Shown here: positions 27,115 to 29,998 of the stretch, one piece after another
How the letters are laid out: each line of letters begins with the position of its first letter
How positions within the stretch are numbered: the first letter of the stretch is position 1
Virus record (IMG/VR): IMGVR_UViG_2526164633_000022
Span: 1-63,168 of that record
Length of the DNA: 63,168 nucleotides
Direction: 5' to 3' (one strand)
From: a virus
Lineage: Duplodnaviria > Heunggongvirae > Uroviricota > Caudoviricetes
Made by a program: the position numbers and the translations under genes
Notes under the pieces: model-generated
Seen by the model: only the letters and a program-made list of their open reading frames with translations
Database searches by the model: none
What the model was told of the DNA's origin: nothing

Positions 27115-27410
27115 TTACTTTTTCCGAATTATGTGGATAGCTTTTATAAGTGGTGATAACTACCCAGGCTTTCCCGTCAGCACACATCCTATATCCCGCC
27201 AGCACACATTAGCAACCCGTCAGCACACATTTTTATCCCGCCAGCACACATCGTTTTCCCTCCAGCACACATCGCGATACACTTCTAAGCCAGACGTGGC
27301 GCGGCCTGCAACGATCAGGGATCTATATGGATCTAATTGGGATCTGTATGGACCTAATTATTGGATCTACCCAGTGGATAATGTGGATAAGTGAAAAACC
27401 GGCCAACATA
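27115..27410. other. Plasmid origin oriR (incC iterons, GATC cluster, DnaA boxes)
   Basis: Five CCAGCACACAT-type iterons 27165-27285; GATC at 27314, 27321, 27331, 27342, 27366; TGTGGATAA DnaA boxes at 27129-27141 and 27387-27403. Confidence 0.8.
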
Positions 27411-27430
27411 GCCGGTTGGAAGGAAGGGTA

Positions 27431-27823
27431 TTATTCTACGCTTTCGATAAGAAGACCATGTTCATAACATTTAAGCTCATCGCCTTCGTACAGGAATTGG
27501 TATCCAATACCACCATTTTCATGAACATTAGGGAATAACTCATAACTCACTGAAGAGCAAATCACACCAATGCAACGATCAACGCCTTCTCGTTCTTCAG
27601 TGCTGAAAAAATCCTCTTCGGTAAGAACATGAGTACATTGCTCATCAGCATAGGTCGGAAATACATGCTCGATGCAATCCGGGTGTTTTAAACCAAGCTG
27701 ATCGGCAAGCTCGAAAGCATGACGGTATTGTTCAGATCCTGGCTTGCCAACAGTGATGTGCTCAATTTTGTAGATTGAAGTCGCTTTGTTGATAGTTTGC
27801 TTTACTGTTACTTTATCAGACAT
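27431..27823 (-). CDS. Hypothetical protein
   Basis: 130-aa ORF. Confidence 0.5.
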   Translation of the reverse strand: MSDKVTVKQTINKATSIYKIEHITVGKPGSEQYRHAFELADQLGLKHPDCIEHVFPTYADEQCTHVLTEEDFFSTEEREGVDRCIGVICSSVSYELFPNVHENGGIGYQFLYEGDELKCYEHGLLIESVE

Positions 27824-27834
27824 AAAAATCCCTT

Positions 27835-28167
27835 TTAGTTACCGCTGATAGCGCGGTTGTAATCATTAACGTTGCGATTCTTCCTGTTAATCCCCATCAG
27901 CATCGTTTCTGTATCGAGGATATACGCTGGCAGATCATCAAAATATTCACTGCTAAACTCTGGCATCCTGCACATAAATGCACTTTTTGGGGCAGGGTGG
28001 TTAACCTTTGTCGGCGTCGGCGTTAAATTCGCTGATCGACTCCCGGAGCAACCGCTGAGTGTCAGCAGGAATACGCTGACGAACATTACCCGCCGCAACA
28101 AGTTGTTTCTGAACTTCAGCTTTTCGTTCCATTTGCCTGTCAGCATACTTGGCTTGTTCTGATTCAT
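27835..28167 (-). CDS. Lipoprotein precursor
   Basis: Lipobox LTLSGC after hydrophobic segment; true start uncertain (overlaps next ORF). Confidence 0.5.
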   Translation of the reverse strand: MNQNKPSMLTGKWNEKLKFRNNLLRRVMFVSVFLLTLSGCSGSRSANLTPTPTKVNHPAPKSAFMCRMPEFSSEYFDDLPAYILDTETMLMGINRKNRNVNDYNRAISGN

Positions 28168-28423
28168 TTTTCACTTCCTGGCTGTGAAAATGTTGCTCTG
28201 CTTTGTTCATCGTCTCAATGGTCTGGTTAAGATCCATTATTGACTTATCACGTTCCTTAACAGCCTGATCAAGACTGCCAATTTTCTCCATGGCTTGCTT
28301 TAGCTGATGACGTTCCCACGCAAACCCAGCACCAACAAGTGCGCAAATCAGAACAAGAACACCAGTAGCAGCAAGTTTCTCCTTCAAAGACAAAGCTGTT
28401 TTTAACGTAGAAAAGAATGACAT
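28001..28423 (-). CDS. Membrane-anchored coiled-coil protein
   Basis: Start at MSFFSTLK; TM helix VLVLICALVGAGFAW; 3' end overlaps lipoprotein ORF in another frame. Confidence 0.4.
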   Translation of the reverse strand: MSFFSTLKTALSLKEKLAATGVLVLICALVGAGFAWERHQLKQAMEKIGSLDQAVKERDKSIMDLNQTIETMNKAEQHFHSQEVKNESEQAKYADRQMERKAEVQKQLVAAGNVRQRIPADTQRLLRESISEFNADADKG

Positions 28424-28462
28424 GTCTTCCTCCTGAAGAAAAATTATCAATGAAGTCCTTTG

Positions 28463-29251
28463 TTACCGTGCCGCTTTGTTTAATTCATCAAGAACAGAAT
28501 CAGGAACCAAAGCGGCGACTGCGCTGGCTGTGCTGGCCTTATTTGCTGATGCTTCCGCAAGCGCGGTACCGATAGCATGGTTATAAGCAGTTATGGCTAC
28601 GTTGGCGCTTTCATTCGCTCGTTCATACTGCTGTTGTAACGCAGTTGTGGGTGCTGTTGTCTGGTTGAAAACAACCCCAAACTGTTCAGTTGCTACTTTC
28701 AGAGATTCAATTTGCTCTTCTGTTAGTGCTGGTGGGGGAGTGGCAGTGCCGCCGCCTGAACCAGAGCCTGACGAGCTTCCTGAGCCAGTGTTAAGGGTCT
28801 GGTTAATCTCCCCCATAGCAGCGACTAAACTTGATGTATTAAGCGCGTTTACAGCGTCCTCAAGCGATTTAGTAATAGTCACATCACCAACGGCAATAGA
28901 GATCGGCAGTTCTGAAACTTCTCGCTCATTAGCACGACAGTAAACATCCCAACCAATATCGAGTTGAAGGAGCATTGACAGATCAGCATAACCAGCCAAC
29001 AGGTCCGCGTGCTGAGTTGCCAGCCCTCCAATATTCGTTAAACCGGTTGCGGTTGTTCTGATCGTTGAAACATAGCTGGTAATAGTGTCGGGATAGACAA
29101 TTGTATCCAGAATTAATCCGGTCAATTCTTCTGCAAGCAGTTTTGCTGTGTTAGCACTGTTTCGTGCCGATGTTATGGCACCAGGTGTTTTCATCCCACC
29201 GGCGGCGGCCAATTTTTTATATGCGGATAACTGGTAGTCTTTTTCCAGCAT
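28463..29251 (-). CDS. Hypothetical protein with Gly/Ser linker
   Basis: Start at MLEKDYQ; linker GSGSSSGSGSGGG. Confidence 0.45.
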   Translation of the reverse strand: MLEKDYQLSAYKKLAAAGGMKTPGAITSARNSANTAKLLAEELTGLILDTIVYPDTITSYVSTIRTTATGLTNIGGLATQHADLLAGYADLSMLLQLDIGWDVYCRANEREVSELPISIAVGDVTITKSLEDAVNALNTSSLVAAMGEINQTLNTGSGSSSGSGSGGGTATPPPALTEEQIESLKVATEQFGVVFNQTTAPTTALQQQYERANESANVAITAYNHAIGTALAEASANKASTASAVAALVPDSVLDELNKAAR

Positions 29252-29259
29252 GATATCTC

Positions 29260-29544
29260 CTAACTTACCTGAACCAGGCCGTCTCCGGCTGCAACGGTAG
29301 AGCCGCATGAAACAGGATCACCAACGCATACGATCCCTTTCCCGTTGACGGTAAACCATGCCCTGGTTGATATAGCTTGCCCGCCGTGCGTGCTGTTCCC
29401 ATCGGTATGCTGTGCATATTGCTTACCATCAACTAACACTTCGACTCCGTTGACTTTAAGTAGTGGTTCGCTCTCTACGGTAGGCCTGGATGGGAATCCT
29501 CCGTGCCCCGAACAAATGCTGTCTTTTGTTGCAATACTTGCCAC
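29260..29544 (-). CDS. PAAR-like small protein (possible spike tip)
   Basis: 94 aa; motifs SICSGHGG and VNGKGIVCVGDPVSCG. Confidence 0.4.
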   Translation of the reverse strand: MASIATKDSICSGHGGFPSRPTVESEPLLKVNGVEVLVDGKQYAQHTDGNSTHGGQAISTRAWFTVNGKGIVCVGDPVSCGSTVAAGDGLVQVS

Positions 29545-29625
29545 GTCATCACCAATGATTTGCTCTGATTTTCGTTATTTTAACTTAGGTTATTTGTGGT
29601 CTGTATGGCGTTTACTTATTTCAAA

Positions 29626-29642
29626 ATTGCTCTAATAAATAT
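29626..29642 (+). promoter_or_regulatory. C1 operator upstream of hrdC-dmt operon
   Basis: ATTGCTCTAATAAATAT. Confidence 0.7.
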
Positions 29643-29713
29643 TGTTTTTTATGTCGTGTTTTCGGTACCATTCAGCCATCGCCCTTCAATGGGCATTTGT
29701 TTGGAGTCGTCAG

Positions 29714-29998
29714 ATGCAGATGGAGCTAATAAGCCGCAAGGAGTTCGATAGCCGTGTAACCAGCGGTGAACTCGACAACTTGCAGGCTATCAAGGTGAAA
29801 GAAGGCTTTTGCCTCATTGGGAATCAGAGCGGAACAAATCGCGTTTTTATGCTTCGCCGTACGGATTTGAAGCCATTTGTCTGGAAGAACGAAATTGGTC
29901 CCAGCTCATACGCTCAAACGAGGGGGTGCCACAACCTGGCATTTTTCTACAAAGACGAGCTTTCTGTGGTTGATATTCAAGGGTTACAACATGTTTAA
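29714..29998 (+). CDS. Small protein upstream of hrdC
   Basis: Start at [11 protein letters not shown] (track ORF 29642..29998); overlaps hrdC start. Confidence 0.4.

Follow-up and report, generated by a model that had tools for sequence, protein, structure and literature searches.

The upfC gene of this P1-like phage-plasmid almost certainly encodes a single-domain PAAR-repeat protein of the T4 gp5.4 type that caps the gp5 spike, and does so from a unit separate from the gene 5/6 operon. The assignment of upfC as a spike tip is correct and is already known from published work. Here, we set out the evidence for this assignment in the window, by which we mean the whole 63,168-nucleotide stretch of DNA that was analysed (IMG/VR record IMGVR_UViG_2526164633_000022), and consider the genes with which upfC is linked. 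A 3-kb stretch around the open reading frame (ORF) was compared with Punavirus P1 records; its DNA identity was 99.3% with MH422554 and 97.9% with NC_005856, which is the P1 reference. Judged by sequence, the window is a P1-like phage-plasmid and the ORF is upfC, which corresponds to P1_gp066 in the P1 reference annotation:

upfC, 29260-29544, minus strand: 94-aa PAAR-type spike-tip protein, with a GTG start and a TAG stop (29262-29260)

The full product is MASIATKDSICSGHGGFPSRPTVESEPLLKVNGVEVLVDGKQYAQHTDGNSTHGGQAISTRAWFTVNGKGIVCVGDPVSCGSTVAAGDGLVQVS. The original prediction had described a 94-aa product carrying SICSGHGG and VNGKGIVCVGDPVSCG, and both motifs are indeed present in this ORF, at UpfC residues 9-16 and 66-81, respectively. 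P22T is the sole amino-acid difference between UpfC of the window and that of P1. The codon concerned (codon 22; 29481-29479, minus strand) specifies Thr here, whereas Pro is found in each of the five further P1-like phages that were compared. Across six P1-like phages, 15 codons of upfC varied by synonymous changes only, against three with amino-acid changes. Since the variation is mostly synonymous, the minus-strand frame is real, and these codons argue for strong purifying selection on upfC. An overlapping plus-strand ORF (29345-29635) was rejected as spurious, as the substitution pattern fits the minus-strand frame.

UpfC as a member of the PAAR family

The resemblance of this product to PAAR proteins, which had been the core of the original prediction, was borne out by matches in Pfam, PHROGs, NCBIfam and the PDB that are well beyond chance. 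UpfC matched PHROG 281 over its full length (residues 1-93, E=4.1e-30) and the NCBIfam family T6SS_PAAR_dom (NF033420) over positions 4-93 of 94 (E=1.1e-9). The Pfam PAAR profile, proposed at the outset as a check, gave a mixed outcome: PAAR_motif (PF05488) did match with an E-value of 9.2e-6, but the score of 26.2 bits was a marginal miss, 0.8 bits short of the gathering cut-off of 27 bits. An alignment and profile were also built from seven relatives, namely those of the window, P1, Cronobacter phage JK004, E. coli phage D6, T2, a Rhizobium phage and Aeromonas phage pAh6-C. PF05488 was matched by all seven of them at E<=0.01, the best value being 2.1e-20. Relatives of UpfC were found by tblastn in 1228 phage records, mostly T4-like.

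Among PDB sequences, the best match was 9vyi_A, itself named "UpfC", which is identical at 93 of the 94 positions and differs only at T22P. The next was 9f4b_BA, a 97-aa gp5.4 homologue mislabelled "Phospholipase". The single-sequence search also returned the T4 gp5.4 chains 5iv5_ZA (E=4.4e-8) and 4ku0_D (E=6.2e-8), as well as the V. cholerae PAAR protein 4jiv_D (E=1.8e-4). With the seven-relative profile, the type VI secretion system (T6SS) PAAR proteins 4jiv_D and 4jiw_D matched at 4.4e-16 and 1.4e-12, and matches extended to the PAAR domains of the T6SS effectors Tre23 (8.2e-6) and Tas1. A single-sequence AlphaFold2 model of UpfC had a pLDDT of 38.9 and a pTM of 0.27; the predicted cone fold of UpfC is based on the 93/94-identical PDB chain 9vyi_A and on published cryo-EM. 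Two such cryo-EM placements were published in 2025-2026. Both put a monomeric UpfC on the trimeric gp5 needle, one with a model built into a 3.2 Å baseplate map (PMC12810830), the other by superimposing an AlphaFold2 multimer on the map without refinement (bioRxiv 10.1101/2025.07.21.665459).

These matches might also be read as those of a moron or host-takeover gene, encoding either a PAAR protein that plugs into the T6SS of the host or a 'membrane protein'. This reading draws on the category of PHROG 281 ('moron, auxiliary metabolic gene and host takeover'), on RefSeq product names such as 'PAAR motif of membran proteins' and on the genuine homology of UpfC to T6SS PAAR proteins. However, we regard it as very improbable. 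Against the NF033420 equivalog, UpfC scored 38.3 bits and did not reach the cut-off of 124; because it falls so far below, UpfC is homologous to T6SS PAAR proteins and yet not a T6SS component. Furthermore, UpfC is a bare 94-aa domain with neither an effector extension nor a transmembrane segment, its nearest solved relatives are phage spike tips, and the relatives in T2 and in Aeromonas phage pAh6-C sit among baseplate genes. Cryo-EM puts UpfC in the virion (PMC12810830), by which the host-takeover reading is effectively refuted. An enzymatic function, be it 'phospholipase', 'putative phospholipase ptp' or 'alanine racemase', is less probable still, to the point of being negligible. These names derive only from annotation strings in GenBank and PDB records, whereas UpfC matched no enzyme family in Pfam, NCBIfam or PHROGs, the PAAR cone would occupy all 94 aa, and the "Phospholipase" of 9f4b_BA is the 97-aa gp5.4 homologue described above.

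For UpfC as a spike tip, the conserved residues of the family are also informative. H14, H46, H53 and C80 are invariant in the seven-sequence alignment, which covers P1-like, T-even, Rhizobium and Aeromonas phages, and several Gly, Pro and Asp positions are likewise invariant. In T4 gp5.4, three His and one Cys make up a tetrahedral Fe site that joins the hairpin tips (PMC12407873). The four invariant residues of UpfC are consistent with such a three-His-one-Cys site, and UpfC may thus bind metal in the same way. A literal "PAAR" string is absent from the 94-aa UpfC and from the T2 gp5.4 homologue; in T4 gp5.4, structurally equivalent elements are described as standing in for the PAAR motif (PMC12407873), and the literal string is therefore unnecessary.

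The gp5 spike and its cap

The partner of UpfC is encoded elsewhere in the window. A gpV-like spike gene had been predicted at 36348-36980, about 7 kb away from upfC, and this gene was confirmed as gene 5 by PDB, PHROG and Pfam matches, at a distance of 6.8 kb:

gene 5, 36348-36980, minus strand: trimeric central spike with an OB domain and a beta-helix, no lysozyme domain
gene 6, 36973-37989, minus strand: baseplate hub, immediately upstream of gene 5 and in the same direction; positional match to P1_gp080

The gene 5 product matched PDB chain 9vzk_q ('Gp5') over its full length (E=1.6e-136), PHROG 430 ('baseplate hub subunit and tail lysozyme', 1.3e-51) and the Pfam Phage_base_V OB domain (E=1.1e-4), and the role of gene 6 as baseplate hub is described in published work (PMC12810830). 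There is no HxH motif in the 210-aa gene 5 product, which has one His in total. For spikes without an HxH apex, a separate tip protein has been proposed to be required (PMC12407873), and gp5, as it has no HxH, falls into this class. That the tip might be encoded in an operon separate from the spike had been suggested in the original prediction, and upfC does lie in a different transcription unit from gene 5. Indeed, tip genes need not adjoin spike genes (PMC12407873).

The distance between upfC and gene 5 is 8.6 kb in P1, and is shorter in the window because about 2 kb between dmt and ban are missing. The P1 stretch that is absent here contains tRNA genes (trnA/trnT), plp, upl and tciA-C. The dmt-ban gap of the window (32911-33934) is about 1 kb compared to 2.6 kb in P1, with no tRNA gene, and the dmt ORF itself is 672 aa here compared to 754 aa in P1. 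When a 5.6-kb query covering the dmt-ban region was used, the best phage records aligned in 2-4 pieces across 7.3-9.0 kb.

The relationship between UpfC and T4 has been noted before. The 2004 P1 annotation recorded UpfC as 31% identical to the T4 ORF5.4 product, and Gonzales et al. (2022) used HHpred to identify UpfC as the P1 equivalent of gp5.4, the spike tip of T4 (PMC9024508). Moreover, gp5.4/UpfC is the only T4-P1 tail-protein pair that is detectable by BLAST (1e-8; PMC12407873). We propose that one copy of UpfC would fold into a small cone, the apex of which would be held by a metal ion with three His and one Cys as ligands, by homology to T4 gp5.4. At the baseplate centre, this cone would sit on the trimeric gp5 beta-helix and cap its blunt C-terminal end, the position of UpfC and one-copy stoichiometry being those given in the literature, and the UpfB tripod is reported to be attached to the UpfC tip. 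The contracting sheath would then push the sharpened spike-tip complex across the outer membrane, a piercing step that in P1 is likewise modelled on T4 gp5.4, and the complex would dissociate before DNA passes through the tube.

Among known systems, the nearest to the tip of the window is that of P1, where upfC is the same gene and has in common with it the GTG start, the neighbours on both sides and the upstream C1 operator. The linked upfB, however, carries a P1-type middle in P1 and an SJ46/Ro157-type middle in the window. T4 gp5.4 (PDB 4ku0, 5iv5) is like UpfC in length (97 versus 94 aa, with ~30-35% identity), in the shared three His and one Cys apex ligands, in being a monomer that caps a trimeric gp5 beta-helix and in being dispensable for plaque formation. 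The two systems differ in that T4 has gene 5.4 directly after gene 5 within the baseplate cluster (as seen in T2), whereas upfC of the window and P1 is 6.8-8.6 kb from gene 5 and in a separate unit. P1 gp5 is also without the lysozyme domain of T4 gp5, and UpfB is additionally reported on the tip in P1 (PMC12810830). T6SS PAAR proteins (V. cholerae VCA0105, 4jiv; E. coli c1882, 4jiw) belong to the same superfamily and likewise cap a trimeric beta-helical spike, which is VgrG in the T6SS; unlike UpfC, they act in a bacterial secretion system rather than in a virion and often carry effector extensions. The P2 gpV and phi92 gp138 spikes share with the P1 tip a place at the centre of a contractile-tail baseplate and a role in membrane piercing (PMC12407873). 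In these, however, tip and spike are fused and iron is bound by an HxH motif, whereas P1 gp5 has no HxH and relies on a separate tip protein.

Deletion of upfC in P1 gave no plaque defect (PMC9024508), and upfC was scored as non-essential when knocked down in a genome-wide CRISPRi screen (PMC10695390). In addition, LC-MS/MS analysis of P1 virions did not detect UpfC (PMC9024508). The deletion and CRISPRi results would fit a real but vestigial tip, one that assembles and adds nothing measurable in P1, the work being done by the UpfB tripod or the Sit transglycosylase. We consider a vestigial tip distinctly unlikely, as upfC is under strong purifying selection (the 15 synonymous-only against three amino-acid-changing codons across six P1-like phages) and is conserved in D6 and JK004. 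T4 gp5.4, too, is dispensable for assembly and yet needed for fitness and for hosts with truncated LPS (PMC12407873).

The leftward unit between upfC and the plasmid origin

The proposed source of UpfC is a leftward unit, upfC-upfB-ppfA/mlp-upfA, from which upfC would be expressed separately from the gene 5/6 baseplate operon. In the P1 reference annotation, upfC is followed on one flank by upfB, ppfA, mlp and upfA and then by oriR and repA, and on its other side the uhr-hrdC-dmt operon runs divergently, under the C1 operator Odmt. The corresponding features of the window, beyond upfC itself, are as follows:

upfB, 28463-29251, minus strand: reported tail-tip 'tripod' protein; likely start ATG 29251-29249, 262 aa
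ppfA, 28001-28423, minus strand: Rz-like (inner-membrane) spanin; PHROG 89 'Rz-like spanin' E=1.5e-25; positional match to P1_gp064
mlp, 27835-28167, minus strand: Rz1-like lipoprotein spanin; PHROG 30284 'Rz-like spanin' E=1.2e-76
upfA, 27431-27823, minus strand: last gene of the leftward cluster; PHROG 1453 (unknown function) E=2.4e-61; P1_gp062
terminator-like hairpin with T run, 27397-27417, minus strand: after upfA and before oriR; putative terminator from a consensus scan only
C1 repressor operator Odmt (Op68), 29626-29642, plus strand: in the divergent intergenic region between upfC and uhr, ~85 nt upstream of upfC

The neighbours of upfC had been taken for plasmid-side small envelope genes. 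This part of the original prediction did not hold as regards function: they are upfB, with its reported tripod, the Rz/Rz1-like spanin genes ppfA and mlp, and upfA. The mlp gene overlaps ppfA out of frame, which is the usual Rz/Rz1 arrangement, its translation contains an LSGC lipobox, and RefSeq names its product 'Rz-like spanin'. Because upfB encodes a reported tail-tip tripod and ppfA/mlp encode spanins, the cluster next to oriR/repA is a lytic-cycle unit bordering the plasmid origin. The overlapping spanin pair (27835-28450, minus strand) shares one transcription unit with the spike tip. It appears to lie apart from the endolysin, with no lysis-annotated gene within ~9 kb on either side in P1. 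In D6 and JK004, where UpfC shows 57% and 78% identity, respectively, upfC and upfB likewise stand next to each other. In both phages the pair adjoins plasmid-maintenance genes, those of D6 being of a different type.

UpfB has been reported as a tripod of trimers on the spike tip, from a medium-resolution map and an AlphaFold3 fit (PMC12810830). It had no relative in the PDB sequence set and no significant family in Pfam or NCBIfam. The P1 annotation starts upfB at 29308, giving 281 aa and a 49-nt overlap with upfC. Several observations point to a start further downstream: the upfB homologues of D6 and JK004 begin at the M20 position, the PHROG 1559 profile covers only UpfB residues 20-281, and upfB is annotated as 262 aa in SJ46 and Ro157c2YLVW. 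In addition, an AGGAG box lies across the stop codon of upfC, 8 nt ahead of the ATG at 29251, so that upfB would begin 8 nt past that stop. The true start of upfB is probably this ATG (29251-29249, M20), yielding 262 aa, and the start annotated in P1 would be too far upstream. From the overlap of AGGAG with the stop codon and the 8-nt spacing, upfC and upfB are probably translationally coupled.

The middle of UpfB (28592-28906, minus strand; residues 116-220, numbered from M20) surrounds a Gly/Ser-rich linker and occurs in two forms in P1-like phages, with one allele type in P1, P7 and RCS47 and another in the window, SJ46 and Ro157. In this segment, 25 codons had amino-acid changes and 18 were synonymous-only, whereas the N- and C-terminal parts of UpfB, and upfC, are conserved. 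The dimorphism could stem from recombination, or from selection acting where the reported tripod is exposed at the surface.

As to the expression of the unit, a P1 late (Lpa-type) box was taken from the annotated LP23 as AAGTNACTT-N4-TANNNT. It had six matches in the window, none of them near upfC, and a relaxed search upstream of upfC (two mismatches, 3-6 nt spacer) gave nothing convincing in the window, P1, D6 or JK004. A sigma-70 consensus scan of 27300-30000 gave no match upstream of upfC. Across 29545-29713, which contains neither an Lpa late box nor a sigma-70 consensus, the sole annotated element is the C1 operator Odmt. Its sequence is identical in the window and P1 and its position matches the P1 annotation, in which it is given as the control of the divergent Pdmt promoter. 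In the text of two P1 RNA-seq papers, upfC, upfB and ppfA go unmentioned. It is conceivable, if rather doubtful, that upfC-upfB constitutes a 'tip plus tip-cap' cassette, conserved and translationally coupled, which is kept apart from the baseplate operon and has a promoter of a type other than Lpa late, possibly C1-operator-linked, the dimorphic middle of UpfB reflecting contact with the host surface.

Annotation and significance

The upfC gene is unannotated in Ro157c2YLVW (1301-1585 of the stretch compared) and in several other P1-like records, and is truncated to 59 aa in the SJ46 annotation (699-983 of the stretch compared), probably due to its GTG start. Elsewhere, UpfC or its relatives go by the names 'phospholipase', 'alanine racemase' and 'PAAR motif of membran proteins'. 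Relabelling upfC and mending the start codon of UpfB would better annotate a widespread phage-plasmid family. The value of the result is mainly one of correct annotation; it also confirms that a PAAR spike tip can be recognised by a reader who has nothing but the letters. If the cassette reading of upfC-upfB were true, the pair would tune host specificity or envelope penetration and, being transcribed together with the spanins, would place a device for entry and one for exit in a single unit.
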